Below, piece by piece: positions 8,225 to 53,160 of a stretch of 64,000 nt of DNA. The stretch spans positions 32,001 to 96,000 of IMG/VR virus record IMGVR_UViG_3300047444_000783. One strand, given 5' to 3'. Position numbers and translations under genes: made by a program. How positions within the stretch are numbered: the stretch's first letter is position 1; each line of letters opens with the position of its first letter. Below the pieces are notes generated by a model. It was given only the letters and a program-made list of their open reading frames with translations. It was not told the origin of the DNA and searched no databases. The stretch is from a virus.

Positions 8225-8233
8225 CGGTCCCCA

Positions 8234-9838: not shown

Positions 9839-9866
9839 TTTTAAATGCTCCTAAGTTGTCGCCGGC

Positions 9867-10391
9867 TTACGCCGGCTTAGCCTTAAAGATATTGCCGAAT
9901 AGGGTCCCGAATCCGCCGGCAAGGCTGCCGATACCGCTTGTCCATGCACTCAACTGCTGGGCCGCCAGTTGGGCCAATTGTCCGCTAACGGTCGTCTGCC
10001 CCTGCGTCGCGCCAAGCGCTCCCTGCGTTTCTCCGAGTCCGAGGCCGGTCAGCGACTGCAGGGCGTTATTAATATTGTTCTGGTACAGGCCGCTGATCGT
10101 CTGCGCCTGACTCTGTGCCAGTTGCGTCCGGGCGGCCGGAACGTATCCGCCGGCGGGTGCCGTATCCTGCAACTGCCGGTTGGCGTTCGAAAACTGCTGC
10201 TTCGTGAACTCGGCGGCCGGCGCGACTGCCGCGTACGCCTGCGGTCCGCCTTTGATGATCGCGCTGTAGTAGTCCTGCGACTGCTTGAGTGCGGGCGCGG
10301 CCCCGCTGCTCAGGTTCCCGTAGAGGCTGCTGAAGTTATTGGCCGCCTGTCCTGCAATTTGCTGAGACTGTTTGGCCGCGCCCTTACCCAT
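9867..10391 (-). CDS. Probable small ejection/pilot protein (174 aa)
   Basis: MGKG start, Gln/Ala/Gly-rich, glycine-zipper-like C-terminus (GIGSLAGGFGTLFG); typical podoviral position. Confidence 0.6.
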   Translation of the reverse strand: MGKGAAKQSQQIAGQAANNFSSLYGNLSSGAAPALKQSQDYYSAIIKGGPQAYAAVAPAAEFTKQQFSNANRQLQDTAPAGGYVPAARTQLAQSQAQTISGLYQNNINNALQSLTGLGLGETQGALGATQGQTTVSGQLAQLAAQQLSAWTSGIGSLAGGFGTLFGNIFKAKPA

Positions 10392-36955: not shown

Positions 36956-37942
36956 TTAGCTCAGCGTTGGGATGTTGGTAAGACGGAAGTTGTACCGTGG
37001 GTTCGCCACGATAATATTTCCGGCCCAGAGGTACTGACCACTTCGGTCATCCGAATTGTAGATTTCCTTGAAGCCGGTGAACCCAAACTGGTACCGCTTC
37101 AGGGTCGAAGTGAAGAACATCAGGTTCTCCTGCTTCGTGTTCATTCCGTACATGCTGCCGGCAGGGGAATACTGGTCGACAACAACCTGGGCGCCAATGA
37201 AATTGAACGAGCGGAAGCCGGCTTTCGCCACATCCGAGGACTCCTCGTTGAACCGCTGCATCGGCTGCAGTTTGTTGAAGAACCAGTTCCACGAGTTCTG
37301 ATCCGATACCAGCATGTCCACATGCTGCACACCGAACCAGCAACTACCCATCGCGAGTTCGACCGCCTTCAGGGAGAAGCCGCTCGAGAGCGATGCTACG
37401 TATCCGTTGGCACCCTGGTTGTTCGTGCCGTTCGATACGCCGAGGTCCGTGCGGGTGATACCGCCGACCGTCGTGAAGAGGGATCCGTTGTCGAACCACT
37501 GATTGAAGCCGTCGACGGATTTCGTGCTGCTGCTCGTACCGAGACCGTCCAAATACATGTCGGTCGCGATCAGCTTCGCCATCTTGCCAGCCGCGTTGGC
37601 CAATTTGCTGCCAACGAACGGGACGGCCTGCATCGGTCCGCGTGCCAGAACGTCGTCCGTGCCGTAGAGCGACACGTTGACGTAATAGAACTTCGGATCG
37701 ACAGCGAATGCTGTGTCAGTCTGAACGTAATCCGTATTGAAGGTTTCCCCGCGTCCGAACGGTCCGCCGTTCAACTCCGCGTAGCCGATGTTCTGGCGAA
37801 TTTTGATGCCACCATCGAACTGCTGGCCGTTGTTCGTGCGAATACGAACGAAGACGGGAGAACTCTTGTATACGACGTCCGCTACAGTGGGGATGATTTT
37901 GTCCTGAACTTTTCCGTTCAAGTCTTCCCACGTTAACGCCAT
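36956..37942 (-). CDS. Major capsid protein (328 aa)
   Basis: IIPTVADVVYKSSP...GG..I...I.Y podoviral-type MCP pattern, MYLDG.G; strong SD AAGGAG; follows the scaffold gene. Confidence 0.85.
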   Translation of the reverse strand: MALTWEDLNGKVQDKIIPTVADVVYKSSPVFVRIRTNNGQQFDGGIKIRQNIGYAELNGGPFGRGETFNTDYVQTDTAFAVDPKFYYVNVSLYGTDDVLARGPMQAVPFVGSKLANAAGKMAKLIATDMYLDGLGTSSSTKSVDGFNQWFDNGSLFTTVGGITRTDLGVSNGTNNQGANGYVASLSSGFSLKAVELAMGSCWFGVQHVDMLVSDQNSWNWFFNKLQPMQRFNEESSDVAKAGFRSFNFIGAQVVVDQYSPAGSMYGMNTKQENLMFFTSTLKRYQFGFTGFKEIYNSDDRSGQYLWAGNIIVANPRYNFRLTNIPTLS

Positions 37943-38950: not shown

Positions 38951-39015
38951 GGTCCCTCGCTTCCGGATCCTTCGCGGCCATCTCTGGCTAAGCGCTACGG
39001 ACTAACGGCTACGCG

Positions 39016-39065
39016 TTTAATAAATTAAATTAACGTTTGACCGTCGTAAGGGAGGGTGTTAGGCT
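39016..39065 (+). promoter_or_regulatory. sigma70-type promoter for a + strand small RNA
   Basis: AT-rich UP tract, TTGACC (39037-39042), 17 nt, TG-n-TAGGCT (39060-39065). Confidence 0.65.
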
Positions 39066-39070
39066 GGGGT

Positions 39071-39154
39071 TCTACTATCGTTCCCTGGCCGATCGCTCCC
39101 ACGCGGTCGCCACTGAAAGCGGTCGGCCCGGCAAGGTCGGCCGCTTTTCTTTCT
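39071..39154 (+). ncRNA. Candidate ~85-nt small regulatory RNA
   Basis: Bounded by a promoter and an intrinsic terminator; internal hairpin CGATCGC-TCCCAC-GCGGTCG; no ORF with an RBS. Confidence 0.55.
39116..39154 (+). terminator. Intrinsic terminator (+ strand)
   Basis: GCGGTCGGCC-CGGCAA-GGTCGGCCGC followed by TTTTCTTT. Confidence 0.75.
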
Positions 39155-39177
39155 ACAACTTTAGGCTAATCGGTCTG

Positions 39178-39372
39178 TCAAGAGCGGTTCCAAATCTCTG
39201 TCAAATCCTGCTTGACGCTCAGGTATGTGGGTGTGATTTTGAGGCGTTGGAGTTGCGTGAACGACAGGATGTACGAGCCGTTCCCGACGATGATGCTCGT
39301 CAGACCGCCGGATGACGAGTTCGGGGTCGTGTCACCGAAATAGGTCTGACCGAAATAGAAGGCGCCGAACAT
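39178..39372 (-). CDS. Small protein with FG-repeat N-terminus (64 aa)
   Basis: MFGAFYFGQTYFG start; directly abuts the GT stop. Confidence 0.6.
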   Translation of the reverse strand: MFGAFYFGQTYFGDTTPNSSSGGLTSIIVGNGSYILSFTQLQRLKITPTYLSVKQDLTEIWNRS

Positions 39373-40101
39373 TTACATACACTCCGATGGGCACTCTCTG
39401 TGGGCGCGCCACTCATCCGCGTACGGCGCGTCCTCATATCCAATGACGTCCGGCACCCCTTCGGTGTAGTGGACGATCGCCGGGTCGAGATCGGGCGACG
39501 AATGGCCGGCCAGCCAGTTCCACTCCTCCGGCAGCCGTCCGATCTGGCTGTCATCCAACCAGCAGAACCGATGGAGGTCGCGGCCTGGCAGACTGTTCAG
39601 CGCCGTCAGCGTCAGCTTCTGGTGCGCCGGATGCTCGAGATTCCAGAGCATCACCGAACTCCAGTTCTTACGCGCGTACGGCAGTTGAGGGTCTCCGTCC
39701 TTCTTCGTAGGCGTCTGCGGTGTGTAATCGTGCTGGACTACCATCACCGCGTACTGTGGATGCGCCAGTTTGACCAACTCCGCAATCCCGCGACGGAAGA
39801 GCACGTCACCATCGGTAAAGAGCGCCCAGCCCTTGGCCGGCAGCATCTGTGGTATGAAAAACCGTGCGATCGCATGGTCGGTCGACATCGGCGCATCCGA
39901 TACGACATCCCAGAGGCGGCCGGACCGTAAAGCCTCGGCCTGCCGCATGACCGTCCGGCGCCAATAAAGGCTTGGGATCATCCGGTAGTAAAGCGGCTGC
40001 ACGTCGACCGGCAGTTGCGTGGTGTACAGCAGCGAGTCCTTCGCAACCCTCCAGGCTTCCCGCTCGTGCGCGCTGTATCCGATAAAGACCGGGAAACTCA
40101 T
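39373..40101 (-). CDS. GT-A (GT8-like) glycosyltransferase (242 aa)
   Basis: VFIGY...E, GWALFTDGD, YAVMVVQHDY, RKNWSSVML, LPEEWNWL, HYTEG.P. Confidence 0.88.
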   Translation of the reverse strand: MSFPVFIGYSAHEREAWRVAKDSLLYTTQLPVDVQPLYYRMIPSLYWRRTVMRQAEALRSGRLWDVVSDAPMSTDHAIARFFIPQMLPAKGWALFTDGDVLFRRGIAELVKLAHPQYAVMVVQHDYTPQTPTKKDGDPQLPYARKNWSSVMLWNLEHPAHQKLTLTALNSLPGRDLHRFCWLDDSQIGRLPEEWNWLAGHSSPDLDPAIVHYTEGVPDVIGYEDAPYADEWRAHRECPSECM

Positions 40102-40241
40102 TCCGTCGGCTTGGCTTTGAGTGCCGCCCGGGCTGCCTTTAATTCGCCGAGATGACCTGTCTTAGCCAGGATGTCCGATCGAAGCGCATTGATCAGGTCG
40201 TTCAATTTTGCGAGTTCAGCCTGCTTTTCGTCTGCTGTCAT
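40098..40241 (-). CDS. Small coiled-coil protein (47 aa)
   Basis: SD AAGGAG before ATG 40241 (MTADEKQAEL...). Confidence 0.55.
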   Translation of the reverse strand: MTADEKQAELAKLNDLINALRSDILAKTGHLGELKAARAALKAKPTE

Positions 40242-41595
40242 GCTTGTTCTCCTTCTTTGACTTTGGTGCGACAACGACATAAAGTTCGGCGCCGCGGGCG
40301 ATAATCTGTCCAATCTTGAAAAACTTCTCGAGTTTCTTCCGCCACCAGGCCGCGCCCTTCTGGATCAGGTGCGTATTCCGGCCGTCCGGCAGTGTCTTGG
40401 CCGCCGGTCCGGTATTGATGGTGAAGAATCCCAACTGCCGCACGCAGCGACACAGATCGTCGAGTACGTAGAATAGTTTGTCAGGTTCGACGTGCTCAAG
40501 GACGTCCGTACAAATAACGAGGTCTGCCGATCTGGGCGACTCCTGCTTTCCCGGGATCCCTGGATCGTATTCATAGATGGGAAAGGCTAGCGCCTTCTGC
40601 AGTTGCGACTTCCCGCATCCGTAGTCCAGGACCGAGACCGGCCGGTCACTCTTCTTGGCCAACAGTCCGACCAGTTTCTGTACGGTCTCGGCATGCTTCC
40701 CACCGCCTACCCCGTACGCCAGGTTGTCCCGATGGAGTTGCGCGTTCAATTCTGCGTATTCCGCCGAAATCAATTCTGGCTTGGCGAACCCGATAACCGC
40801 CGGTGTGGCCGGTGCTCCGGACTTCTGCTGGTAATCCTTGGCCATCGCCTGGACGAGGCCTTCACCATAGAACGTCGCCTTAACATCTGGCATCTGATCC
40901 AACTCGTGCCAGGTCTCCTGCGCGCAGTGCATCACCGAAGAATTTGTGAAATATTCCTTCCCTTTGTACTCCGTGATGGCCCAGTTCCTAGGTTGATTAG
41001 GATGAGCGGCGGCATGATTGCCAACGTCTTTGCGGAAACAGCCGTCCATGCCAAAGATATGAAGTTCAGTGAATCCCATAAAGCGGGCGATCGTAAGCGC
41101 CCTCAGCCCAACACTCGAACCGCCTGTGAGCGCCCACTCGCCAGCCGGCAGCACCCGATGCACGTCCTCGTGTGGCGAGAATACGTGCCACAGTTTGACA
41201 TTGGCGCCGTGCTCCATAAGGTGTTCGATGTATTTGGGATGGCACGTCGAGGACGGCAGGTATTCGACCTCGGCATGTGGAAGCCCAAGCAATTCAACTT
41301 TATGATCGCGCGGATCTACTTCGACATGCCAACTTGGGACGATCCCGCGCTCGAGTAAGAACTTGTGAGCGCCCGAACAGGAGATGATGAACGGGAAGCC
41401 CCGGACCTGTTCCCAGGTCTCGTTGAGAGATGGCCCGTAACAGACGATAGCTACAGGGTCCTGGCGCTTGTCGTAATTCGGCTGGATACGTCCAGGCACT
41501 CGCGCGGAATTAACGCGCACCTGTTCATCGCGTAGCCAGAGAGGTACCGCGTATTGGACGTCCTGCTTTTCGTTGATATCGAGTCGCTTGCTCAT
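40216..41595 (-). CDS. Maf/DUF115 (MptE-like) glycosyltransferase - SAM methyltransferase fusion (459 aa)
   Basis: N-term VAIVCYGPSL...GIVPSWHVEVDP...GGSSVG..AL..A..MGF..LHIFGMD; C-term SVLDYGCGK, DLVICTDVLEHV. Confidence 0.82.
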   Translation of the reverse strand: MSKRLDINEKQDVQYAVPLWLRDEQVRVNSARVPGRIQPNYDKRQDPVAIVCYGPSLNETWEQVRGFPFIISCSGAHKFLLERGIVPSWHVEVDPRDHKVELLGLPHAEVEYLPSSTCHPKYIEHLMEHGANVKLWHVFSPHEDVHRVLPAGEWALTGGSSVGLRALTIARFMGFTELHIFGMDGCFRKDVGNHAAAHPNQPRNWAITEYKGKEYFTNSSVMHCAQETWHELDQMPDVKATFYGEGLVQAMAKDYQQKSGAPATPAVIGFAKPELISAEYAELNAQLHRDNLAYGVGGGKHAETVQKLVGLLAKKSDRPVSVLDYGCGKSQLQKALAFPIYEYDPGIPGKQESPRSADLVICTDVLEHVEPDKLFYVLDDLCRCVRQLGFFTINTGPAAKTLPDGRNTHLIQKGAAWWRKKLEKFFKIGQIIARGAELYVVVAPKSKKENKHDSRRKAG

Positions 41596-42644
41596 GCGTT
41601 GAATACTCCAGGCCGCGCTGCCATTTTTTGTGGCGTGAAAGACGCCGGGACCAGTGTGCCTTTCGTCCAGAAGTTGCCCAAGTTTACCTGATTATTGTAT
41701 TCCGTCGTAATCCAACTTGCCGATCTGGCGATGTTTGATAAATGGACTTCGTCGATCAGCCCGTTCCATTCACGGCCCGCTGTCCCAGGATCACGCCCGA
41801 TCGTGGTGATGACCGTGCCTGAAACGATGGTCCCGTTTGCTGCGAACGTGCCGTCCGAGGCCGAATTTACATATACCACCAGTCCGGACACGCTGTCGTA
41901 GGTCATGGCGATATGAGTCAAAGTTCCCGTACTCACCGTGTGGCTGCCTGGATCAACAAGCACCGTCCCGGAATTCAGCGTCGTATTGACATAGCACGCC
42001 ATCTTACCCGTGCTCTTGACATGGAGGGCGGCGAAAATAGTATTCGCGGCGTCTTGACTGGTGAGCGGCGTATTGTAAGTAGCACTGAGCGTCGTGGGGT
42101 TAATCCAGCCACTCATCGTGATCGCGGCCGGCTGCGACACGGCAGTCTTATCCATGTATTGAGTGCTGGCGCTGGCAAAACTACCGGCATTACCGATCTG
42201 GCCGGATGCTGATGATGACACGCTATTGTGATTCGTCAGGGTGTTGCCGCCCTGTGATGCGTCGGTACCGGTCGATGGGTCGTGGTATACGCCGTAAAAA
42301 TTAGAATCCCAGACCGACGTGCTGCTGCCGTCTGTGGACACTGCGTTGTCGCCGACAGCCATGTAGACAGTAACTCCGTCCTGGGCCGTCGGCAGAAGAA
42401 CCCACATTTCAAAAGCGCCGGTCGCCGCGCTGTACGAAACCAGTTGGAAGGTGAGTGCAACAGTTAGGCCGGAATCTGCGTAAGGACGGATATCAAATCC
42501 GTCAGTGCGCGCTTTTCCGCCGTTCGCCACAGAGGCGAAATCGGCATCGCCAGCCAGGAAGGGGACCAGCGCCGGGAAATTGGTTTGAGCAGTCCCCGCC
42601 TGGCCTGTCTGGATCCGCACGCCCTTGTAGAAACCGAATGCCAT
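41592..42644 (-). CDS. DUF2341 + LamG/ConA-like lectin-domain protein (350 aa)
   Basis: TNFPALV, DGFDIR, VWDSNFYGVYH, TMSGWI, HIAMTYD, NGLIDEV....ARSASWI..EYNNQ. Confidence 0.85.
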   Translation of the reverse strand: MAFGFYKGVRIQTGQAGTAQTNFPALVPFLAGDADFASVANGGKARTDGFDIRPYADSGLTVALTFQLVSYSAATGAFEMWVLLPTAQDGVTVYMAVGDNAVSTDGSSTSVWDSNFYGVYHDPSTGTDASQGGNTLTNHNSVSSSASGQIGNAGSFASASTQYMDKTAVSQPAAITMSGWINPTTLSATYNTPLTSQDAANTIFAALHVKSTGKMACYVNTTLNSGTVLVDPGSHTVSTGTLTHIAMTYDSVSGLVVYVNSASDGTFAANGTIVSGTVITTIGRDPGTAGREWNGLIDEVHLSNIARSASWITTEYNNQVNLGNFWTKGTLVPASFTPQKMAARPGVFNA

Positions 42645-42648
42645 GAGG

Positions 42649-45051
42649 CTACCCGATGCGGAATAGCCGCATGTAACTGCCGCGCTGGATCACCATTGCC
42701 GCGGTCGTCGTGCTGGCCGCCGCCTGCAATTGGACAACCCCGTTCGTCGAGACGACGAATATACCCTCGTATGTCGCGAAAGTACTCAAGTACGTTACGG
42801 ACGCCGGCGCGTTCGACAGGGTCGTCGAACCGGAAGCGGAATCGCCCTTCCATGGTGCGAATACGCCGACGGCCGAGATCGTTGGAGCCGCCGCGGCTGC
42901 GCTCGTCGGCATGAAGATGTAGCCGCGGGTCTGCGCCATCGCCGGGAACGTCAGCCCGAACTTCGTCGGCGCCGAGGTCGTTCCGCGGTTGAACATGATA
43001 AGCGCTTCAATGCGGTATATCTTAGCGGCGTCCACCGAAAGACTCATCCCGCTGATATTCGTCAGTCCTGTCGCGGATATCGTCTGCACCGTGCTCACAA
43101 TCACCGTCCGGACCGTGTCCAGGACGGAAACCGTCTGCGAGATGACAGATACGGCCTGCGACAGGACGGACACCGCCTGCGACAAAACGGACACCTGCTG
43201 CGAGAGGACCGACACAGCCTGGCTTACGATCGATGCCGCATTTGACGCGGCATTAGCGACGGACAGCGCGTTTGAAGCCGCCGTCGAGACAACCGAGACC
43301 GCCTGACTGACGATCGAAGCGGCATTCGATGCGGCATTCGCTACCGACAGCGCATTCGACGCGGCCGTAGAGACGATGGAAACGGCCTGCGACACGATCG
43401 ACGCCGCATTTGACGCCGCGTTCGCTACCGACAGCGCATTTGACGCGGCCGTCGAGACGATCGATACTCCCTGCGAAAGCACTGAGATCTGCTGGGAATG
43501 AAGAGAAAGCGCCTGCGATATGATGCTGATCGCATTCGATGTGACGGTCGCGCTCCCGCTGCCGCCAGTTGCATCGGCAGCCCACGCCCAATCGTAGTCC
43601 GTATTCGTATTCTTCTTGAGGACCTGGCCTGTCAGCCCTCCGGCTAACGTGCTCATCCGCTGGCTGAGAACCGAGTGGGCCTGAGATAAGACCGAAACCT
43701 GCTGCGAGAGAACGGATACTTGCTGGGAGATAATCGAAGCTGCGTTGCTGACGACGTTGATCGCGGATCCACGATTCGAGATCTCATTCGACAGGGCGTT
43801 CGATACGATCGAAGCGGCATTCGATGCGGCATTCGCCACAGATAGTGCGTTCGAGGCTGCATTTGATACGATCGACGCGGCGTTCGACGCGGCGTTGGCG
43901 ACGGATAGCGCGTTTGAGGCCGCTGTCGATACGATGGAAACAGCGTTCGATACGACGTTGATCGCGGATCCGCGGTTCGAGATCTCATTCGACACGGTCT
44001 GCGAGAGAACGGAGTGGGCCTGCGAGAGGACCGAATGCGCCTGCGATAAGACCGATACCTGCTGAGACAGGATCGAGATGGCGTTGGACAGCGCGTTGGC
44101 TATCGAAATCCGATTGGACGTCTCATTCGACAGTGCGTTCGAAACGATCGATGCAGCGTTGGATGCAGCATTCGCGACCGACAGGGCATTCGAGGCCGCT
44201 GTGGATACGATGGAAACTGCTTGGCTGACGATCGATGCCGCGTTTGATGCGGCATTCGCCACTGACAGCGCGTTTGAGGCGGCCGTCGAAACGATCGAAA
44301 CCGCCTGACTGACGATCGATACGGCGTTTGAAATGACGTTGTCCGCCGAGACTCGATTAGATATCTCATTGGAAACCGCTTGCGAGATCAGCGAGACCTG
44401 CTGGGAGATCACCGAAATCGCGTTCGAGAGGACGTTGTCGGCAGATATCCTATTCGAGGTCTCGTTCGACAGGGCATTGGATACGACAGAAACGCCCTGC
44501 GACAGCACGGAGACAGCCTGGGATAGGATAGACACGGCATTCGAAAGCGTGTCGGCCTGGGCGATCCTGGCGGCCGTTTCGACCGACAGCGCCTGGCTGA
44601 CGACAGAAACCCCCTGGCTGATCGTGTTGTCGGCCGCGACCCGAGCAGCCGTCTCTACAGATAAGGCCTGCGATACGATGCTGACACCCTGCGAGAGGAC
44701 GTTGTCGGCCGCCGCTCGAACGCTGAGTTCGTTCGAAATCGCATCCTCGACGTCCGTGAGGACCTTGGCGGTTATCGAGTTATCGATGACGTCGCCGACC
44801 AGGATCGTGCGGGCGAACGTGCCTTCCTGCGCGCGGATGATCGTGAATATACCGCCAGACGTATCGGTAACCCGAACGATCTCGCTATTGGCCTTCGTCG
44901 GTGCCGTGTTGGCTGGAGCGATCGTACAGTTAAACGGGGCAGCCGGGAAGCTGGTCGGGTCGACAGGCGTGAGCGTTGTCCCGCTCGAGGCCGGCGACGG
45001 AGCCGTCCCTACAGTGCTTTGCCCTAAATTCGCATGATTGTCGAACGACAT
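42649..45051 (-). CDS. Serine-rich coiled-coil fibre protein (800 aa)
   Basis: Fibre anchor EIVRVT...TIIRAQEGT; ~500 aa of Ser-periodic repeats; GGLTGQVLKKNTNTDYD knob; beta-sandwich tip. Confidence 0.8.
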   Translation of the reverse strand: MSFDNHANLGQSTVGTAPSPASSGTTLTPVDPTSFPAAPFNCTIAPANTAPTKANSEIVRVTDTSGGIFTIIRAQEGTFARTILVGDVIDNSITAKVLTDVEDAISNELSVRAAADNVLSQGVSIVSQALSVETAARVAADNTISQGVSVVSQALSVETAARIAQADTLSNAVSILSQAVSVLSQGVSVVSNALSNETSNRISADNVLSNAISVISQQVSLISQAVSNEISNRVSADNVISNAVSIVSQAVSIVSTAASNALSVANAASNAASIVSQAVSIVSTAASNALSVANAASNAASIVSNALSNETSNRISIANALSNAISILSQQVSVLSQAHSVLSQAHSVLSQTVSNEISNRGSAINVVSNAVSIVSTAASNALSVANAASNAASIVSNAASNALSVANAASNAASIVSNALSNEISNRGSAINVVSNAASIISQQVSVLSQQVSVLSQAHSVLSQRMSTLAGGLTGQVLKKNTNTDYDWAWAADATGGSGSATVTSNAISIISQALSLHSQQISVLSQGVSIVSTAASNALSVANAASNAASIVSQAVSIVSTAASNALSVANAASNAASIVSQAVSVVSTAASNALSVANAASNAASIVSQAVSVLSQQVSVLSQAVSVLSQAVSVISQTVSVLDTVRTVIVSTVQTISATGLTNISGMSLSVDAAKIYRIEALIMFNRGTTSAPTKFGLTFPAMAQTRGYIFMPTSAAAAAPTISAVGVFAPWKGDSASGSTTLSNAPASVTYLSTFATYEGIFVVSTNGVVQLQAAASTTTAAMVIQRGSYMRLFRIG
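43100..44740 (-). repeat. Degenerate 7/11-residue coding repeats (SQAVSIV, SNALSVANAAS, SNExSNRxSA)
   Basis: Visible in both translation and DNA; boundaries approximate. Confidence 0.85.
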
Positions 45052-45552
45052 CTACGCGTGCACCTTTATTAACCCGTTTGTCTGGTCGAAGGAAATCGCG
45101 AAAGACTGGCCGTTTCCTATACTTACGCTAGCACCGCAGTCAATCCAGGAGATGAGCGGTCCGGCCGTCGGAGTCGAGTTGTAGACCACGAGATATCGGA
45201 ACGGTCCGACCGTCCCTCCCGAGGCGGTGAGCGAGATCGGCGCGAGGACCAATCGATACAGCCCGTTGGACTGTTTGGACGAAACGACAGTCAGCAGCCT
45301 CGAGGAACAATTGACGTACGAAATCTCTGAGATGTCAGACAGGACCGCATTCGTGTTGACCGGCGACGTGGCAGTTAGGGCAAACTTCAGAGCGTCGGCC
45401 GCGAGGTCGTGCACCTTGTTCGCCAGATCCGCCACAAACTGGTTGAACGCGTTGTACTTCCCAACCGGAGGACCGGGAGTCGTACCGCTCGATGGTATGT
45501 ATCCCCCGGGGAAATACCCCCCGGGGAATCCTGGGAGATGGCTTCTCGACAT
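45052..45552 (-). CDS. Fibre-associated structural protein, paralog of 52729-53148 (166 aa)
   Basis: FNQFVADLANKVHDL...LKFALT...GPFRYLVVYN..T...LI.WID.G; TAATG coupling. Confidence 0.75.
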   Translation of the reverse strand: MSRSHLPGFPGGYFPGGYIPSSGTTPGPPVGKYNAFNQFVADLANKVHDLAADALKFALTATSPVNTNAVLSDISEISYVNCSSRLLTVVSSKQSNGLYRLVLAPISLTASGGTVGPFRYLVVYNSTPTAGPLISWIDCGASVSIGNGQSFAISFDQTNGLIKVHA

Positions 45553-48176
45553 TAGTTCAAGGTCAGCGTGCAGGTTGTCCGGTTGCCGTTGACGTCGACC
45601 GTGCAACTAATCACGTTCTTCGTATCGGCCGGGTCGCGGAAAACAATCGTCGAGGTCCCGCTGCCGGACGTTTTACCTCCAAGGGCGGATGCGATTAACC
45701 TCATAGCCTGGCGAAGGGTTTCATCGGCCCCGCTCGCCCGATCTAGTAAAGCGTCGGCCGCGCTGTTGTTACCAGCCGTCGAGAGCGAATAGCCGGCCTT
45801 GTCGTTATTGGTTCCGACCTTTACCTGTCCGGTCGTCAGATCGACCTGCCCGACGCCGGTTCCCTGGCTGACCTTCATCGTGTCTCCGGCCTGGGCTGCA
45901 GTCTTTGCCTGATCGTAGGCGGCCGTCAGAGCGTAGCCCGTCTTGTCGTTGTTGGTCGTGACGGTGACCCCGCCAGAAGCCAGACGCGAGGAGATAGCCA
46001 CGTCGATATTGTCCTTCAGGAGTTTGCCGACCGAACTGGCGGTCGCGAAGTCGCTCGAGGCTAGCAGGTCCTGCCAGACGGTAGCCGCTACCTGTGCGGC
46101 CGTCGGTGCCGTCGCACCCGGGATCGCATCGTACGGCAAGATCGCGAACGTGCTCGTGTTGTCTGGATTCGTCACCCAGGTCGCGACCGTCGCAATCTTC
46201 GTGCTGCCGACGTATGAGGTAATGAACTTCGCCTGCCCGGCGCCGGTTCCGCCCGTGATCAGAAGAAGATCGTTGCTGTAAAAATTATCAGTTGCCGAGG
46301 CCGATGCGTCGAGAGTGATCGTCGTCGCGGCTCCCGCCTGCGCGGTATTGCTACGAACGGTCTGCAGTCCCGTGTCTGCGGCGAAGGTCGCGCGATCGAT
46401 CGCGCCGTCGGCGATCACGCTCGCGTTCACGCTATTGGCCGCGAGCGATGCGACCTTGACCTGACCGGTCACAAGATCAATCTGGCCGGCGGCCGTGCCC
46501 TGGCTGACCTTCATCGTATCGCCAGCCTGAGCTGCTGTCTTTGCCGGGTCGTAAGCCGAGGTTAGAGCATAACCAGTCTTGTCGAGGTTCGTCGCGACCG
46601 TGACGTTCCCGCTCGCCAAACGACTCGAGATCGCCGCGTCGATGTTGTCGTGCAGCAGCTTGCCGATCGAAGCAGACGTCGAGAAGTCCGCCGAAGCAAG
46701 TAGGTCCTGCCAGACGGCCGTTGAAATCTGGCCGACCGTTGGGGCGCTCGCTCCAGGTACGACGTCGAATGGAAGGATGGCGAACGTGCTCGTGTTGTCC
46801 GGGTTCGTCGCCCATGTGCCGACGGTCGCGATCTTGGTCGCGCCAACATAGGCCGTGATGAACTTCGCCTGCCCGGCGCCGGTCCCGCCCGTGATCAAGA
46901 TCATGTCGTTGACGTAGAAGCTATTCGTCGCCGAAGCCCCGGCATCGAGCGTGATCGTCGTGGCCGCGCCAGCCGCCGCCGTATTCGACCGGATTGTCTG
47001 CAGCCCAGTGTCGGCCGCGAAAGTCGCTCGATCGATCGCCCCGTCTGCGATCGCGGCGGCCGTCACGCTATTCGCCGCCAGAGATGCGACGGCGACCGCT
47101 CCGCTCGACAGGTTGATCTGGTTCGCGCCCGTTCCCGAGCTGACCTTCATGATGTCGCCGGCTTGCGACGCTGTCTTTGCCGGATCGTAAGCGCTCGTCA
47201 GAGCATAGCCCGTCTTATCCAGGTTGGTCGCTACCGTCACATTGCCGGACGCCATTCGGGAGGAGATTGCCGCATCGATGTCGTCATGCAGCAGCTTACC
47301 TATCGAAGCGGCTGTTGAGAAATCGCTCGAGGCGAGCAGATCCTGCCAGACTGCCGTCGAGATCTGGCCGACTGTCGGGACGCTCGCGCCCGGGACGGAG
47401 TCGAATGGGAGGATAGCGAATGTGCTTGCCGCGGCTGGGTTTGTGGCCCAGGTCGCGACGGTCGCGACTTTCGTGCTGCCGACATACCCCGTTATAAATC
47501 GCGCCTGCCCGGCGCCGGTCCCACCCGTAATGAGAATGATGTCATTGTTGTAGAAGTTGTTTGTTGCCGACGCTCCGGCGTCGAGCGTAATCGTTGTAGC
47601 GGCTCCCGCCGTCGCGGTATTCGAACGGATCGACTGAAGCCCCGTGTCGGCGTTAAGGGCTGCGCGGTTGATCGCACCAGCCGACGCGCTGACCGTATTC
47701 ACGCCCAATTGAGCGGTCGCCGTGTTGACGGCCGCGCCAACAATCTGCCGGACGTCCACCTGGGCGTTCGTGATGTACCCGGTTGCGCTCGCTCCGTAGA
47801 AGGCGTCGTAAACGGCCGGCGTCACGACATAGCAGGGCTTGAAGACGTACAGAGCGCCCGCAACGTGAACGTTGATCTCGAGCGTCCCGACCGTCGATGT
47901 ATCTGTCGCATCGAGGGTTATATAATAATTGCCAGCCTCTTTGAAGGTCGCCCCTCCCGAGTTTTTGGCCACCGGATCAGCGCTTGCCTTCGCCAGGCGG
48001 ATATCGCTCGCGTTGATCGTCAGCGCGTTCTTTTCGGTATTCCCGTCTGACGGATCCAGGAACGGACCGATCAGATGGGTCTGAGCGCCAGTCGATTGCC
48101 GCAAGAAACACTGAGACCATGCTGGCGTCGAGACGGCGCAGAACAAAAGAATCCAGAGTAGCCGCAGTCGTTTCAT
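45552..48176 (-). CDS. Signal-peptide-bearing repeat protein (874 aa)
   Basis: MKRLRLLWILLFCAVSTPAWS|Q Sec-type leader; LRQST...IGPF.D..DG domain; three 212-aa repeats; TLRQAMRL...GNR C-terminus. Confidence 0.8.
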   Translation of the reverse strand: MKRLRLLWILLFCAVSTPAWSQCFLRQSTGAQTHLIGPFLDPSDGNTEKNALTINASDIRLAKASADPVAKNSGGATFKEAGNYYITLDATDTSTVGTLEINVHVAGALYVFKPCYVVTPAVYDAFYGASATGYITNAQVDVRQIVGAAVNTATAQLGVNTVSASAGAINRAALNADTGLQSIRSNTATAGAATTITLDAGASATNNFYNNDIILITGGTGAGQARFITGYVGSTKVATVATWATNPAAASTFAILPFDSVPGASVPTVGQISTAVWQDLLASSDFSTAASIGKLLHDDIDAAISSRMASGNVTVATNLDKTGYALTSAYDPAKTASQAGDIMKVSSGTGANQINLSSGAVAVASLAANSVTAAAIADGAIDRATFAADTGLQTIRSNTAAAGAATTITLDAGASATNSFYVNDMILITGGTGAGQAKFITAYVGATKIATVGTWATNPDNTSTFAILPFDVVPGASAPTVGQISTAVWQDLLASADFSTSASIGKLLHDNIDAAISSRLASGNVTVATNLDKTGYALTSAYDPAKTAAQAGDTMKVSQGTAAGQIDLVTGQVKVASLAANSVNASVIADGAIDRATFAADTGLQTVRSNTAQAGAATTITLDASASATDNFYSNDLLLITGGTGAGQAKFITSYVGSTKIATVATWVTNPDNTSTFAILPYDAIPGATAPTAAQVAATVWQDLLASSDFATASSVGKLLKDNIDVAISSRLASGGVTVTTNNDKTGYALTAAYDQAKTAAQAGDTMKVSQGTGVGQVDLTTGQVKVGTNNDKAGYSLSTAGNNSAADALLDRASGADETLRQAMRLIASALGGKTSGSGTSTIVFRDPADTKNVISCTVDVNGNRTTCTLTLN
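45810..47670 (-). repeat. Three tandem ~636-bp (212-aa) diverged repeats
   Basis: TCCTGCCAGA at 46069, 46705 and 47341 (exact 636-bp spacing); boundaries approximate. Confidence 0.9.
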
Positions 48177-51100
48177 TGTCGGTGTCTCCTGAAGAGTTCC
48201 ATTAAAATAGGTGCGATCGGGTTGGTAGCTCCGGCTGGTTTAAACGTCGCGACGTTCGCCAGCCAAGGACCGCTGTTGGAAGTCCAGGTCGCGGTCGCGG
48301 TGCCGCTCGACATCGCTATCTCGTATTGATTCCGCGCATCCTGCATTTGATTGAATCCAGCGCCGATCACTTCGCCACCGTTAATGTTCGCGCCAAAACC
48401 GAGGACGAGGTCACCCGTTGTGGCCGTTGCCGATGCCGATAAGGACGTGCCCGTCCCGTTGTTCGTCCCGGTATGGTCCAGCGGCGCCGTCTTGTCCGCG
48501 CCAACCCACTCGCTGACGTTGACCGTCAGGTAGTAGGGCGTGCTGATACCAGCCGTGTTCACCGTGATCGTGTTGGCGCCACCGGTGATATTTTTCGCGT
48601 AGTTCACGCATCCGATGACCCCGGTAGTCCCGAGATTGAGAATCGCTGACGGGTAGCTGTTTAATTGGCTGTCGGTGATGCTGCACGATCCGCCGGCATT
48701 GCTCAGGACGCAAGAGGCGTCCGGGCAATAGGTGATGGTGATGATATTCAGGTTCCCTGTAGTCTCAGGGATCGTGAGAGTCTGGCTTAGCGTCCCTCCA
48801 GGGCCGAGAATGATGCTCGACTGCAATTGGACCAGGCAGATCTGGTTGATCACGCAACTCTGGATATACGCGCCGATGCTCCACGGCGTCGTCCGGGGGT
48901 TACCATCCGCGTCCGTCGTGAACGTTGCGGATAGATCTAAGCCGGTGCCTGCCGCAGGGCTGCCTGGGCGAATATGGAAGTTGCCGGCCGCCGCATTAAC
49001 AAAGAGCGGATCGGTCATGCCTTCCGCTGTGCCGCATGGGGTGACGCTGCCGGCGTTCAGGTTGTTGCTGCACGTCTGTCCCGCCGTAGCATCGTTAATC
49101 GCATGACCATCCATATAGAAAATGTTGTTTTTAGCAATGACGCCGCTAGGAAGACCAGAGCCAAAGTTGTCAAAGGAGAGCGCATAGCCGGAGTTATTGA
49201 AAAGCGTATTGTTGTAGATAAAGGCTGAAGTGACCGGAGTAGAAGAAACATCAATGCCGTTGAAGTTACCGTAAACAACGTTGTTATATGCGGAGTTTCC
49301 TGCCCCAAGGCTGATAAGGATTCCGACGCACGTATCGCCTGTCACCGTGTTGTTGCGGATTACGTTCGCATGGTTGGAATGGTAAAGAACGATCGACTGG
49401 CAATAGGTATTCGTGATTCGGTTGCCGTCTATTATCGTATTGTGAGAATCCGTCGTATCGTCGCCTACATAAACGGCATGGTCGAACGCTGAAGAATTCG
49501 CTCGCCCTGTATCGATGATGTCGTTGTTCAGAATTGAACTGTTGCTAAGATCTCCTTCAATGGCGCTCCCTTCACTGACGTTCGTTCCATCGCCACCCGC
49601 CTTGTAGACCGTCCCATTTTTGACCGTCACGTCAGTCAACGCACTCCCCGGAGGAGCTAGGACGCCACCGCACTGGGCAACGAAATGAGCGTTGCAGTCG
49701 ATATAGAAACCATCAATCGTGATGTGACTGTGGGTCAACAGAAACCCGTAGTGCGTGTTGGCTGGACGGATCTTGGCGGCGTTACGGTTCGCCGCTTGGA
49801 TGATCGTCGGCGCACCCATTGAACCAACTGGCGGATTGATGTCCTGTTCGTCGTAGTTTCCATCGCCGACGATGAGCGTGTTACCGCCGACAAGGCAGCC
49901 AACTCCTCCACCAATCGTCTGCCGCGCGTGCGCGTCATCGTTTACTGTCGCCAGCGCGCACGGGTGCGTATCGTCGCCGGTCGTCCGCACGTAGTAGGTC
50001 GTCGCATTCGCAATGAAAGCCCCGGCATCCCAGGCGCCCATGCTCGGACGTGGGTTACCATCGAAGTCCGTGCAAAACGTTCCACAGAGATTCGTGCCGA
50101 ACCCGGCGGCCGGGCTGCCTGGATTAACGTGGAAATCGCCAGATCCGGCGGCGGCGAAGAGTGGGTCAGTCATCCCTTCTGTTGGATTGCATCCTGGGGC
50201 TATATTGAAATTGTTGCTGCAGGTCTCGCCGGAGAAAGAGGTCATCCCATCAGTGTTGATGCCAACACCATTATTCATATAGCAGAGGTTGTTTTCGATG
50301 GTGTTCCCTACTTGAGTGCTTCCTGAAGAACTTCTATAGATGCAACCCCCAGTATTTCCATAGATGGTATTATTCGCGAATAAAACATTTGCAGGGTCGG
50401 CATAGAAATTTACCCCGTATCCCCCATTGGTCACACCGGTGATGGTTACGTTGTAAACTTGGGTACCGCTTGTGCAATTTGCTATGAAAATCCCAACGCG
50501 AGGACTGCCATTTATGGAGCTATTGCGCAGAATGTTATTGAGGCCAGCACCAGCGTCGCAGGAACCATTTCTGAACTGGACCGCCCCTTCTGCGATGTTG
50601 ACAAACGTGTTGCCGTCGATAGTGTTATCTGATTCCTGAATGTAATAGCCTAGACCTTCATAGTTGTTGTCGAGACCGGCGCAAAATCCTCCAATGTCGT
50701 GAATATAGTTATTGGTGAATTGGTCGAAGGTAGAACCGTGCGTTCCTGGCCCAAGGTTGTCTGTGACTTCAACCGCATTTGAAGTGCTGGAGCAGTTCGA
50801 ATTATCGATGTGTTGAAAATGATGTATCTCTGAATTGACGATATCGATGTGATCGCTGTGGTTCAACCGGAACCCGTCATTCGTTGCTGGCGTATTCGCC
50901 CCATCTTCCGCTATCCCGTCGAATCTGATGTAGGATCTGCTCAACATCCAAATGACGCCAACTCCGCCGGCTGGAAGATTGATCGTCGGCTTGATGACAG
51001 CCATCCGATTATTAACAGCCTTGATGGTGGTTGGGGCACCCATCGAGCCGGACGGAATCGTGTCCGGAATGAGGGTATCGTACGTTCCGTCGTTCAGCAT

Positions 51101-52726
51101 CAACGTGTCGCCGGCAAGTGCTGTCAAGCACGCAATCCCGCCCGCAACCGTCTTCTTCGCGTGCGCGTCGTCGTTCGTCGTCGCCGAGGCGCAGGACCCT
51201 GCGTCGGAGGCGGCGGTCGTGCGAACGTAGTACGTCGCTCCCGTATAACCGGCTGGAAACGAGCAGCCGCCGGTATTGACATGCAAACGATTTTGCACGT
51301 CGAAAGCCGACTGTCCGGCGACATCATTTAATCCGCCAACGGCTGCTCCATGGGGAAATGCGCCAGTTGACGCGTCCCACAACCTGGCAGTCGTCAATAT
51401 TCCATTGACATATTCATAAAGAACGTTAGCCCCAATATCAGATCCGCCCAATCCAGCGCCGTGAAGATTAGACGCTGCCGGGATCCAGGCATAGCATGTA
51501 CCGAGTCCTGTCGGAGCGGATGTGGATGCGTTCGTAATGTTCGCATTCGGCGGCGCTGGACTATAGTTGGTTCCATTGCCGCTGGCCACCGTGTAGTTCA
51601 GGGTCCAGGTCGTCGTGGCCGTTATCTCAAATCCAAAACTTGACGAGTTGTTAATCGAGAGGCACCCCGTGCAGAAGAATGAAGGCGACGGCGCCGGGTT
51701 CGTACCGGCCGGCGCATCTGCCACAATTCCAATGCTGGTTCCGCTGCCAAACACCGACACGTTCGAGACCTGGGTATTAAGTGCCCCTCGTGGATAGATC
51801 CCCGCTTGATTTGGGTTGATGACGACCGCGTTTTTGATCGTGGTATTGGTCGGGAATGTTCCAGGATTTCGCGAGGCCTCCGTAGCCCCGTAATAATCGT
51901 TCAGCGAAATGTTTCCCAACTCCTGGTTGCTGTCGGATGTGGCCGTCGCTTGAATATCGATCCCGTCATCATTATTCTCCGAGATGTTGTTTTCAAGGAT
52001 GTCGCCGCTTTCCGGGTACGGATTGAACGCCGCATCGCCACGCAACACGTTACTGGAGACGAAGCCACTGGGGATATCCGCATACAACCTGGAATTCGCG
52101 TAGTTCCTCCTGTACGTGTTGTTCGACCCATTCTTTGTGACCACCGCGCTCCGGTGAAAGTAATAAAACTCGTTCTCCTCGATCAGAGAGTTCGTGATCG
52201 CAATGAACAGCAAGTGCTCACAATTGCAATACCGGTTATTGTGGTCGAAAATGTTTCGTCGGACCGTGATGTGGTCCCCGGTATTGAACGCCAGTAGGTC
52301 ATCGAACAGCCCGACTCCTGGCTGATCCGCGCTTTGAAAGTGCAAGCCGAGCACGCTCCAGTAGGAGCAGTGAGTCGCGAACATCGCAAACGTCGAGTTC
52401 ATTGCAGTCGCGTCGATCAGCGCCTGCCGTTCGTTCTCTGCAACGATTGTCACGGGGTTGCCTGCCGTCCCGTTATGAGCCGTCCCACTACAGTCAGCCG
52501 AAAGGAACCCGCTATTGCTCCCGTTGTAAGTCCCGTTCCGAAGAGTCAGGGTGTCGCCTGCGGTGATGATTGGGACTGCGTGAGCAAACGTCTTCCATGG
52601 AGACCCTGAAGACGTGCCCGGATTGGCGTCAGAACCGGTGGGCGAGATCCAGTATGTCGTGGCCGAGACTGTCCCCGGCAGCGCGATTAAAAACAGGCAA
52701 AGTAGAAAGATGATTTTCTTAAACAC
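48173..52726 (-). CDS. Signal-peptide-bearing protein with three tandem beta-helix (DUF1565/pectin-lyase-like) modules (~1517 aa)
   Basis: GTG start after GGGGTAGGT: MFKKIIFLLCLFLIALPGTVSA|TTYWISPTGSD. Modules open with TYWISPTGSD / TYYVRTT / TYYVRTT; DPLF...FH..PGSPA...D.DGNPR endings; many Cys pairs. Confidence 0.85.
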   Translation of the reverse strand: MFKKIIFLLCLFLIALPGTVSATTYWISPTGSDANPGTSSGSPWKTFAHAVPIITAGDTLTLRNGTYNGSNSGFLSADCSGTAHNGTAGNPVTIVAENERQALIDATAMNSTFAMFATHCSYWSVLGLHFQSADQPGVGLFDDLLAFNTGDHITVRRNIFDHNNRYCNCEHLLFIAITNSLIEENEFYYFHRSAVVTKNGSNNTYRRNYANSRLYADIPSGFVSSNVLRGDAAFNPYPESGDILENNISENNDDGIDIQATATSDSNQELGNISLNDYYGATEASRNPGTFPTNTTIKNAVVINPNQAGIYPRGALNTQVSNVSVFGSGTSIGIVADAPAGTNPAPSPSFFCTGCLSINNSSSFGFEITATTTWTLNYTVASGNGTNYSPAPPNANITNASTSAPTGLGTCYAWIPAASNLHGAGLGGSDIGANVLYEYVNGILTTARLWDASTGAFPHGAAVGGLNDVAGQSAFDVQNRLHVNTGGCSFPAGYTGATYYVRTTAASDAGSCASATTNDDAHAKKTVAGGIACLTALAGDTLMLNDGTYDTLIPDTIPSGSMGAPTTIKAVNNRMAVIKPTINLPAGGVGVIWMLSRSYIRFDGIAEDGANTPATNDGFRLNHSDHIDIVNSEIHHFQHIDNSNCSSTSNAVEVTDNLGPGTHGSTFDQFTNNYIHDIGGFCAGLDNNYEGLGYYIQESDNTIDGNTFVNIAEGAVQFRNGSCDAGAGLNNILRNSSINGSPRVGIFIANCTSGTQVYNVTITGVTNGGYGVNFYADPANVLFANNTIYGNTGGCIYRSSSGSTQVGNTIENNLCYMNNGVGINTDGMTSFSGETCSNNFNIAPGCNPTEGMTDPLFAAAGSGDFHVNPGSPAAGFGTNLCGTFCTDFDGNPRPSMGAWDAGAFIANATTYYVRTTGDDTHPCALATVNDDAHARQTIGGGVGCLVGGNTLIVGDGNYDEQDINPPVGSMGAPTIIQAANRNAAKIRPANTHYGFLLTHSHITIDGFYIDCNAHFVAQCGGVLAPPGSALTDVTVKNGTVYKAGGDGTNVSEGSAIEGDLSNSSILNNDIIDTGRANSSAFDHAVYVGDDTTDSHNTIIDGNRITNTYCQSIVLYHSNHANVIRNNTVTGDTCVGILISLGAGNSAYNNVVYGNFNGIDVSSTPVTSAFIYNNTLFNNSGYALSFDNFGSGLPSGVIAKNNIFYMDGHAINDATAGQTCSNNLNAGSVTPCGTAEGMTDPLFVNAAAGNFHIRPGSPAAGTGLDLSATFTTDADGNPRTTPWSIGAYIQSCVINQICLVQLQSSIILGPGGTLSQTLTIPETTGNLNIITITYCPDASCVLSNAGGSCSITDSQLNSYPSAILNLGTTGVIGCVNYAKNITGGANTITVNTAGISTPYYLTVNVSEWVGADKTAPLDHTGTNNGTGTSLSASATATTGDLVLGFGANINGGEVIGAGFNQMQDARNQYEIAMSSGTATATWTSNSGPWLANVATFKPAGATNPIAPILMELFRRHRQ

Positions 52727-52728
52727 AC

Positions 52729-53148
52729 CTACCCCAATTGCAGTTGAATCAATCCGGTCGGGCCGTTGAACGTCAGCGGCCACGACTCAGACTCGTTAAG
52801 AAAGACGGATGCCCCGTAATCAAACCAGGCGATCAGCGGATGATTGCTCGGCGTCGCGTTATAAATCACGATGTACCGGTATGGGCCGACGGACCCGTGT
52901 GACGCCTGGAGCGCAAGATCCTTGCACACCAGTTTGTACAGGCCGGCGGTCTGAGTCGATGAGATGACCGTGATATCGCGCGCGCTGCAGTGCCTGTAGC
53001 GGACTTCGTGGATGCTCGAGAGTACCCGATTTAACGGGCTGGGCTGGGTATTGGTGAGCGCGACCTTAAGGTCGTCGGACCCGAGGTTGTGAACCCCATT
53101 GGCGAGATCCGCCACGAACTGCTGGAACAGATTGTAGACGGCCGTCAT
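52729..53148 (-). CDS. Fibre-associated structural protein (139 aa)
   Basis: FQQFVADLANGVHNL...LKVALTN...GPYRYIVIYNAT...LIAWFDYG. Confidence 0.8.
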   Translation of the reverse strand: MTAVYNLFQQFVADLANGVHNLGSDDLKVALTNTQPSPLNRVLSSIHEVRYRHCSARDITVISSTQTAGLYKLVCKDLALQASHGSVGPYRYIVIYNATPSNHPLIAWFDYGASVFLNESESWPLTFNGPTGLIQLQLG

Positions 53149-53160
53149 TCATCGTCATCC

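Follow-up and report, generated by a model that had tools for sequence, protein, structure and literature searches.

In the textbook account, tailed phages are assembled wholly in the cytoplasm. Among the phage proteins that leave it, T4 Spackle and T5 Llp are Sec-exported proteins of tailed phages, and the adsorption protein g3p, by which the virions of filamentous phages bind their receptor, carries a Sec leader and periplasmic disulfides. The T4 antiholin RI is likewise a Sec-exported tailed-phage protein, with a cleavable signal peptide (PMC8385771). Fibres of comparable layout are found in a bacterium: the mosaic adhesive trimer (MAT) fibres of Bdellovibrio bacteriovorus begin with a signal peptide and a beta-rich, conserved N-domain (about 130 aa), followed by a shaft and tip that vary and resemble phage fibres, with disulfides in the tip (PMC10769870). 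The MAT structures named there as solved are fragments from the C-terminus.

Here we analyse a 64,000-nucleotide stretch of DNA (the window) from an uncultured, 110-kb soil phage that appears to be virulent. The original prediction, made from the letters of the window, singled out two adjacent "virion-type" proteins with Sec-like signal peptides and triplicated modules, and proposed that both are exported, either to decorate the surface of the infected cell, to degrade its glycans or to join particles in the periplasm or after lysis. Export of both proteins, as predicted from sequence comparison, is well supported. The fuller account that we favour, in which an accessory, translationally coupled cassette is exported by Sec and acts on envelope or extracellular polysaccharide, stands in our estimate at about even chances.

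The locus and its leaders

The pair and its surroundings are laid out as follows.

38951..53160, no strand assigned: accessory block of 14.2 kb between a 208-aa gene and a scaffold-like gene, missing in relatives
52729..53148, minus strand: 139-aa protein without a leader (phrog_644), immediately upstream of the pair
48173-52726, minus strand: large gene, 1517 aa, GTG start at 52726, 2 nt past the upstream stop codon
52661..52726, minus strand: signal peptide of the large protein, residues 1-22, from the GTG start to a predicted cleavage at VSA|TT
45552-48176, minus strand: small (fibre) gene, 874 aa, ATG start at 48176
48114..48176, minus strand: signal peptide of the fibre, residues 1-21, predicted cleavage at AWS|QC
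45052..45606, minus strand: 53% identical paralogue of the 139-aa protein, immediately downstream of the pair and ahead of a leaderless 800-aa fibre

The ATG of the fibre gene has AGGAG 9 nt upstream and overlaps the stop codon of the large gene as ATGA. The family of the 139-aa protein is viral-only, and its nearest named cluster is fibre I gp80 of podophage GP4 (score 0.86, a lead only); the true start of its paralogue probably lies downstream of 45606.

A Sec/signal peptidase I leader was defined by a positive n-region, a hydrophobic core of 7-15 residues and small residues at -3 and -1. Read from the sequence, both N-termini are of this kind: the 22-residue leader of the large protein has two Lys in its n-region, a 12-residue core and a Pro-Gly before the site, and the 21-residue leader of the fibre has a charge of +3 and a 10-residue core. 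Neither contains a lipobox or a twin-arginine motif, the Cys residues in both cores having no lipobox neighbours and RR being absent. In a crude genome-wide census these two were the only large phage proteins with such N-termini; three other, small leader-bearing proteins of the phage gave no Pfam match, and no thiol-oxidoreductase was found.

It could be argued that the hydrophobic N-termini are not used for export at all, being wrong starts, uncleaved anchors or chance, and that both products are cytoplasmic virion parts. Public gene calls do begin past the leaders, at residue 25 of the fibre (P0005) and residue 92 of the large protein (P0125), but both calls remove conserved domain sequence. 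The large protein shares a conserved stretch, residues 22-91, with its homologues, and the sequence offers no start codon between the leader and this stretch. The alternative TTG at residue 25 of the fibre has no ribosome site ahead of it and would cut into the first strand, which is conserved. Since downstream starts would truncate conserved sequence, the true starts include the leaders, and the concern that translation begins beyond the hydrophobic segment falls away; one correction is that the large gene, previously given an ATG start, begins with GTG. The cores of 10-12 residues are moreover too short for a membrane anchor, and more than 30 diverged clusters again show leaders that end in AXA sites and are accompanied by matching Cys pairs. 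We therefore regard a reading without export as very improbable. On these comparisons the leaders are judged to be translated and selected, conserved as a feature and not as a sequence in dozens of diverged homologues. That public calls clipped both of them means that automated phage annotation hides such proteins.

A fibre from a largely leaderless family

The fibre is divided as follows.

47787..48113, minus strand: Ig-like N-domain, residues 22-130, with Cys23 and Cys115, model pLDDT >90
47043..47678, minus strand: repeat 1, residues 167-378, a small beta knob, helices and a beta linker, from sequence comparison and model
46407..47042, minus strand: repeat 2, residues 379-590
45771..46406, minus strand: repeat 3, residues 591-802
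45555..45770, minus strand: C-terminal domain with hairpin Cys858 and Cys869

The three 212-aa repeats noticed earlier are confirmed over residues 167-802, with 68-83% amino acid and 70-75% nucleotide identity and many synonymous differences between them, which indicates that the repeats are old and under selection. The repeat knob matches phage baseplate and tailspike domains (Z 8.9 to 8gtc_P, 8.1 to a tailspike depolymerase). A Foldseek search of the fibre model against the PDB gave generic Ig-like matches only, PDB sequence searches matched neither the fibre nor the large protein, and Pfam found no S74 chaperone domain in the fibre. As an anchor of the lactococcal-phage BppU type the N-domain was rejected, its Z of 6.6-6.8 lying inside the noise range. 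The fibre is built from phage tail and fibre domains, as the term "virion-type" implied, and is probably trimeric.

The N-domain begins at residues 22-24, right after the leader, and finds homologues with phmmer E-values down to 4e-46 in a family of 5500 representatives, most of them leaderless. Among the best 149 of these 5500, 112 are leaderless and about 33 have classical leaders, of 17-28 aa, with AXA-type sites 2-4 residues ahead of the domain; supported branches of the tree show at least 4 switches of leader state. Set against the leaderless homologues, as the original prediction had suggested, the fibre leader is an add-on, and cysteine pairs follow its presence. A pair of the Cys23/Cys115 type occurs in 18 of 37 representatives with an N-terminal extension and in 0 of the 112 leaderless ones (0/161 when a further 49 leaderless N-domain proteins are included). 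The hairpin pair of the C-terminal domain is found in 2/2 leader-bearing and 0/33 leaderless proteins, and a pair in the P0007-type C-terminal domain, which the source fibre does not have, in 10/12 and 0/30, respectively. These are raw counts that are not phylogenetically independent, and an independent-pairs test of leader versus Cys on the tree, with only 4 supported pairs, was underpowered. As far as these alignments go, the Cys pairs of three separate fibre domains are all but confined to members with a leader. An IMG/VR scan with P0152 gave matches confined to the repeat knob.

The proposed export is in this way supported by starts that include the leaders, by the recurrence of leaders in homologues and by Cys pairs that track leaders in three domains. 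Secretion-type leaders together with paired cysteines argue that folding of both proteins very probably takes place outside the cytoplasm, the compartment in which tailed phages assemble their particles. The shortness of the leaders suggests the periplasm as destination, so the host is probably a diderm.

The large protein and its bacterial relatives

The large protein contains, after its leader, the following parts.

51242..52660, minus strand: beta-helix module 1, residues 23-495, AlphaFold model pLDDT 94
50012..51241, minus strand: beta-helix module 2, residues 496-905, Pfam Beta_helix 31.2 bits, paralogue of module 3
48857..50011, minus strand: beta-helix module 3, residues 906-1290, Pfam Beta_helix 33.9 bits
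48176..48856, minus strand: C-terminal Cys-containing domain, residues 1291-1517, 227 aa, non-helix, no Pfam family

Three beta-helix modules had been predicted, and all three are right-handed parallel beta-helices, modules 2 and 3 by profile (the Pfam Beta_helix cut-off, PF13229 clan, is 25.9 bits) and module 1, whose Pfam match falls below the cut-off, by its model (pLDDT 94, Foldseek E 1e-11). Modules 2 and 3 are 36% identical (E 3e-43) and have two Cys pairs in common, while module 1 is distant from the others (31% over 123 aa, E 8e-7). The description of both proteins as triplicated modules therefore stands, but it left out the 227-aa domain at the C-terminus of the large protein. This end domain is also present in P0301, a protein of 641 aa with a leader and a single beta-helix module that is 39% identical to the large protein over 644 aa; since the alignment starts in module 3 and stops only a few residues short of the large protein's end, P0301 must carry the same domain after its helix.

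The closely spaced cysteines noted before are indeed there: 34 Cys are present in the mature protein, with spacings of 2-12 residues in many cases, and 17-18 of 19 sequences keep the module 1 pairs 79/120 and 411/488. Its Cys content is 2.3%, against a genome mean of 1.3%, and several leaderless proteins, including a 781-aa fibre, reach similar levels, so that Cys content alone was rejected as a marker of export.

The best PDB structure matches of module 1 are GH136 lacto-N-biosidases, Pel9A and PL6 lyases; the fold matches are spread over GH136, PL9, PL6 and GH87 with TM-scores of 0.4-0.55 only, and the P22 tailspike is only 44th among them. Homologues of module 1 are multidomain bacterial proteins on large contigs. 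Four of those that start at the domain have a leader directly before a TYY-type mature N-terminus. The 10 homologues of module 2 all bear leaders, nearly all of them in this position. In the large protein, as in these bacterial homologues, the mature N-terminus runs directly into the helix cap, and a tailspike-type particle-binding domain ahead of the beta-helix is absent. The label "virion-type" thus does not extend to this protein, which resembles the secreted glycan enzymes of bacteria; its activity is a prediction from the models.

One could accordingly consider the large protein an ordinary secreted carbohydrate enzyme, an auxiliary metabolic gene of bacterial origin, with the fibre as unrelated cargo. 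The multidomain bacterial homologues fit this idea, as does the GC content, which dips to 0.53-0.56 across 48-52 kb against 0.59 elsewhere in the genome, and SignalP leaders have been found on 5% of 64,678 prophage carbohydrate-active enzymes (PMC13507307). Such an origin would not, however, account for the conservation of the enzyme-fibre order, the 4-nt overlap and the leaders on both partners in two other contigs (L038 and L040), nor for a position within the late structural operon of an apparently virulent phage, and we find it improbable.

An accessory cassette and its possible roles

In three contigs (L038, L040 and L048) a beta-helix gene is followed by a fibre gene, and both products have leaders. 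L038 and L040, both from soil, have a distantly related portal homologue directly upstream, and in L038 each of the two genes has a canonical ribosome site and overlaps the stop codon of the gene before it. In a further contig (L083) both partners are present and neither has a leader. Judged by gene order and overlap, the enzyme and fibre pair is a conserved, translationally coupled cassette. Searches of the phage GenBank collection found no DNA relative of the region and no protein match to the large protein, for which an IMG/VR scan also gave no matches.

A complete close relative of the phage (G001, 107,420 bp, with terminal repeats) runs from portal to a 211-aa gene, a scaffold-like gene and the major capsid gene with nothing intervening, and contains no homologue of the large protein or of the fibre. 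The pair is therefore accessory and not a core virion part, and the relative offers a natural with-and-without comparison in this phage lineage. Several leaderless beta-helix or fibre proteins are encoded in the tail region of the source phage.

In the account that we favour, the cassette would be made late, alongside the structural genes; the host Sec pathway would take both products, signal peptidase I would cut them, and they would fold with disulfide bonds outside the cytoplasm, a route that is well supported. The large protein would be a three-headed glycan-cleaving enzyme of the bacterial secreted type, and the pair could act jointly on polysaccharide, in the envelope or outside the cell, of the infected host and around it, leading to receptor destruction or masking and to easier release, while particle building would not need it. 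Several points weigh against this account. The fibre retains an N-domain that mostly heads leaderless fibres, which are presumably bound to particles; it is hard to see what an exported fibre would do in free form; and the position in the structural operon, where a scan of the accessory block for promoters and terminators gave signals no higher than chance, fits a virion role as well.

A possible, although less probable, alternative is that both proteins are virion appendages matured in the periplasm, which would be exported, folded oxidatively and docked on cytoplasm-built particles when the membrane is breached at lysis, via the fibre N-domain and perhaps through the adjacent leaderless 139-aa protein, as an extra host-recognition and depolymerase appendage. 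The fibre consists entirely of phage tail and fibre domains, predicted cleavage restores the N-terminus of the leaderless fibres, and the N-domain is as conserved as in leaderless members. The genomic setting is also suggestive, as the cassette adjoins the portal in several phages and leaderless paralogues of the viral-only small protein precede both the pair and the leaderless fibre. In one contig (L037) a tape-measure-like gene and a 255-aa gene are followed by genes for a 705-aa protein and a fibre, both with leaders, and another (L117) has three consecutive leader-bearing fibre-like genes at the end of an unannotated gene cluster. Docking during or after lysis would, however, have to work against dilution, the pair is missing from the complete relative, the large protein is without a particle-binding N-domain, and no particle partner was identified.

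Our literature search brought up no account of tailed phages whose tail fibres carry leaders, nor any paper describing an export route for a tailed-phage fibre and glycanase. Widespread leader-bearing fibres with export-specific disulfides would imply either a use apart from the particle (receptor destruction, exclusion or help with release) or assembly in two compartments. We put forward the latter only tentatively: in some tailed phages head and tail would be cytoplasmic and Sec-exported host-recognition fibres and a depolymerase, disulfide-bonded in the periplasm, would dock at lysis, here as an optional, swappable cassette. In practical terms, fibres and depolymerases of this kind may need periplasmic, oxidising expression to fold when cloned.

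The closest known counterparts of the source fibre include leaderless fibres (for example XAN61292.1, 207 aa, of Microcystis phage Mvi-Yong1342-1, and IMG/VR L003 and L004), which have an N-domain 47-53% identical to it at their extreme N-terminus, variable distal parts and the same repeat knob, but start 2-4 residues ahead of the domain, with no leader and no Cys23/Cys115 pair. The MAT fibres resemble it in layout, with a signal peptide, a beta-rich N-domain and a variable fibre, but they are bacterial gene products that serve on the surface of the bacterium itself (PMC10769870). With the GH136 enzymes LnbX/BsaX (5gqc, 7v6i), Pel9A (1ru4) and PL6 lyases, module 1 shares the right-handed beta-helix (Foldseek E down to 1e-11), and in secreted bacterial beta-helix enzymes, as in the large protein, the helix cap follows the leader directly and Cys pairs are conserved; the large protein is unlike them in its three modules in one chain, its phage late operon and its translational coupling to a fibre gene. 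The P22 gp9 tailspike (5gai) and the large protein are both beta-helix proteins from a phage structural region, with glycan cutting a prediction in the latter, yet tailspikes lack a leader and bind the particle through an N-terminal domain, whereas the large protein has a leader and no such domain. T4 RI, Spackle and T5 Llp are also directed to the periplasm during infection, but they are small regulators or exclusion factors, whereas the proteins described here are fibre-like or enzyme proteins of 870-1500 aa. The phages that carry g3p, finally, are assembled at the membrane, whereas tailed phages are built in the cytoplasm.

Leaders, start codons and genomic setting

The window spans bases 32001-96000 of one contig of 109,586 bp. 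A terminal direct repeat of 243 bp indicates that this single contig is a complete phage genome, which has a GC content of about 59% and carries nearly all of its genes on the minus strand. Reading this strand from high to low coordinates, PHROG and Pfam scans gave the following gene order.

Gene order around the pair (PHROG/Pfam assignment unless stated)
58120-59691, minus: terminase
54254-56071, minus: portal
After the portal, minus: 208-aa gene (from gene order)
52729-53148, minus: 139-aa phrog_644 gene (PHROG)
48173-52726, minus: large protein, directly after the 139-aa gene
45552-48176, minus: fibre protein, after the large protein
After the fibre protein, minus: phrog_644 paralogue
Then, minus: leaderless 800-aa fibre
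Then, minus: LamG protein
Then, minus: MptE-like protein fused to a methyltransferase
Then, minus: GT8 glycosyltransferase
Then, minus: scaffold-like gene
36956-37942, minus: major capsid gene

Beyond the major capsid gene lie sugar-modifying enzymes, several leaderless beta-helix/fibre proteins and a giant protein of 4179 aa (2-8224, running on upstream of the window), which has zero cysteines. The tail region (12519-14186, 17773-19554, 22319-23413) encodes more leaderless beta-helix/pectin-lyase-type proteins, so the phage already owns a conventional, particle-borne depolymerase-like set. Outside the window, at G000:C1:8024-8554, 19034-19321 and 106320-106667 of the contig, N-termini resembling signal peptides occur in three small proteins (176, 95 and 115 aa), for which a Pfam search returned no family.

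The original prediction of Sec-like leaders on both proteins was borne out, both N-termini having the n/h/c layout of signal-peptidase-I substrates. Their hydrophobic cores, 12 residues in the large protein and 10 in the fibre, are too short for membrane anchors, and neither N-terminus contains a lipobox or a twin arginine; in a crude census of all ORFs, these two alone were flagged among the phage's large proteins. The large gene starts with GTG at 52726, 2 bases past the upstream stop, and yields a product of 1517 aa, while the fibre gene starts with ATG at 48176, preceded at 9 bases by AGGAG and overlapping the stop of the large gene in an ATGA. The public gene calls begin downstream of the leaders, at residue 92 (P0125, large protein) and residue 25 (P0005, fibre), and the signal peptides are thus hidden by automated annotation. 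True starts downstream of the leaders find no place in either gene: over residues 22-91 the large protein is closely matched by homologues such as P0127, with no alternative start between the leader and this conserved stretch, and the TTG at fibre residue 25 lacks a ribosome site and would cut off the beginning of a strand kept intact in 49 of 51 homologues. Judged from the sequence, both public start calls are wrong.

The fibre and its N-domain family

The three 212-aa repeats noted in the fibre are present, 68-83% identical in protein but only 70-75% in DNA, and by their many synonymous differences they are old and maintained. The repeat knob, a small beta domain, resembles domains of phage baseplates and tailspikes (Z 8.9 and 8.1), and BFVD matches are phage tail and fibre proteins. 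Residues 22-130 are modelled as an Ig-like domain (pLDDT >90), the N-domain; the very large family that it heads numbers 5500 representatives with E values of 1e-3 or better. Going by its members, this is a phage family and mostly leaderless: among the best 149 of the 5500, 112 are leaderless, starting 2-4 residues ahead of the domain, and about 33 have 17-28-aa leaders with net positive n-regions. These leaders end in AXA-type sites placed 2-4 residues ahead of the domain, so that the predicted cleavage would restore the N-terminus of leaderless fibres. Leader-bearing N-domain fibres also occur in a prophage of a Nitrospiraceae MAG (L009), on a contig of an Omnitrophota MAG (L014) and at 10 of 80 metagenome loci, and the N-domain tree contains 13 changes of leader state, of which at least 4 fall on supported branches.

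Cysteine pairs and leaders (counts include related proteins and are not phylogenetically independent; a formal tree test is underpowered)
N-domain, Cys near the mature N-terminus plus Cys115: 18/37 with N-terminal extension; 0/112 leaderless
C-terminal hairpin of this fibre, Cys858 plus Cys869: 2/2 leader-bearing; 0/33 leaderless
C-terminal domain of the leader-bearing homologue P0007, absent from this fibre: 10/12 leader-bearing; 0/30 leaderless

In the N-domain, the N-terminal Cys never occurs without Cys115. Despite the limits of these counts, adaptation to an oxidising compartment would predict just such a pattern, repeated across three unrelated domains.

Other leader-bearing genes were seen at these loci. 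In L009 (8092-11059), a leader-bearing 162-aa protein and the N-domain fibre directly follow a capsid/protease gene, and a 466-aa minor-tail-like protein has a hydrophobic N-terminus; in L014 (2581-5967), consecutive leader-bearing genes of 174 aa, 270 aa and 696 aa, the last an N-domain fibre, lie between terminase and head-tail adaptor. A leaderless 781-aa pectate-lyase-type fibre of this phage (19974-22319; 14 Cys) shares 48% identity with a 797-aa protein of IMG/VR contig L117 that has a leader; three consecutive fibre-like genes of this contig (797, 519 and 641 aa; 4052-9926) all bear leaders.

The large protein

The presence of three beta-helix modules was confirmed: the second and third are clear paralogues (36%, E 3e-43) and module 1 is more distantly related to them; a 227-aa C-terminal domain follows the third. 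Homologues of module 1 (36-46% identity over about 490 aa) are modular and bacterial in type, featuring PKD, dockerin, LamG or FG-GAP domains; some come from contigs of megabase size, and where the module comes first a leader directly precedes the same TYY-type N-terminus. Each of the 10 module 2 homologues begins with a leader or a hydrophobic segment, which in nearly all of them runs straight into a TYY-type start. One of the 10, P0301, a leader plus a single module, aligns with the large protein over module 3 and nearly all that follows it, so the same end domain is present, and on this alignment it is a one-module version of the large protein. Cys pairs 79/120 and 411/488 are kept in 17-18 of 19 sequences, and two further pairs are common to modules 2 and 3.

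The fold matches of the module 1 model (pLDDT 94) are led by GH136 lacto-N-biosidases, Pel9A and PL6 lyases; with P22 tailspike only 44th among them, identification as a tailspike was rejected. By architecture and fold, the large protein is a member of a secreted family, as a putative fused three-headed enzyme of bacterial secreted type. That it is only a plain auxiliary carbohydrate enzyme of the kind known in prophages, 5% of whose carbohydrate enzymes bear leaders (PMC13507307), is unlikely; this leaves the coupled fibre unexplained. GC falls to 0.53-0.56 over 48000-52000 (modules 1-2) vs about 0.59 elsewhere, which fits later acquisition of that part.

The cassette and its possible role

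Two soil contigs, L038 and L040, carry a portal homologue with 24-25% identity to the portal here, and directly after it come a leader-bearing beta-helix gene (27% to module 2) and then a leader-bearing N-domain fibre. In L038, each of the two starts that include the leader overlaps the stop before it and has a canonical ribosome site, the beta-helix/fibre junction being an ATGA overlap as in the window. The same pair recurs in L048, cut by the contig end, and in L083 the two genes adjoin, neither with a leader. The partners thus agree in having or lacking a leader, and this suggests that they act in one and the same compartment. In the closest relatives (portal 67-70%, capsid 86% identical), a 211-aa gene leads straight to the scaffold-like gene, and no homologue of either protein occurs anywhere in the complete relative G001 (107,420 bp). 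The missing stretch defines a 14.2-kb accessory block (38951-53160), absent from three relatives, one a complete genome, and comprising two phrog_644 paralogues, the leader-bearing pair, the 800-aa fibre, the LamG protein, the MptE/Maf-like-methyltransferase fusion and the GT8 transferase. By gene order, then, the pair is a conserved cassette, accessory in this phage. The presence of the Maf-like enzyme is a hint of possible glycosylation of the Ser/Thr-rich fibres.

We infer, at about even confidence, that the pair is an extracytoplasmic enzyme and fibre that would act on envelope or extracellular polysaccharide and would be dispensable for particle assembly. The main rival, in which both proteins mature in the periplasm and attach to particles at lysis, seems to us rather unlikely; the intact N-domain of the fibre, the position in a structural operon and the leaderless phrog_644 paralogues that bracket the pair agree with it. 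The literature searched contained no account of tailed-phage fibres with leaders; the nearest published analogue is the MAT fibre family of Bdellovibrio, which is bacterial (PMC10769870).
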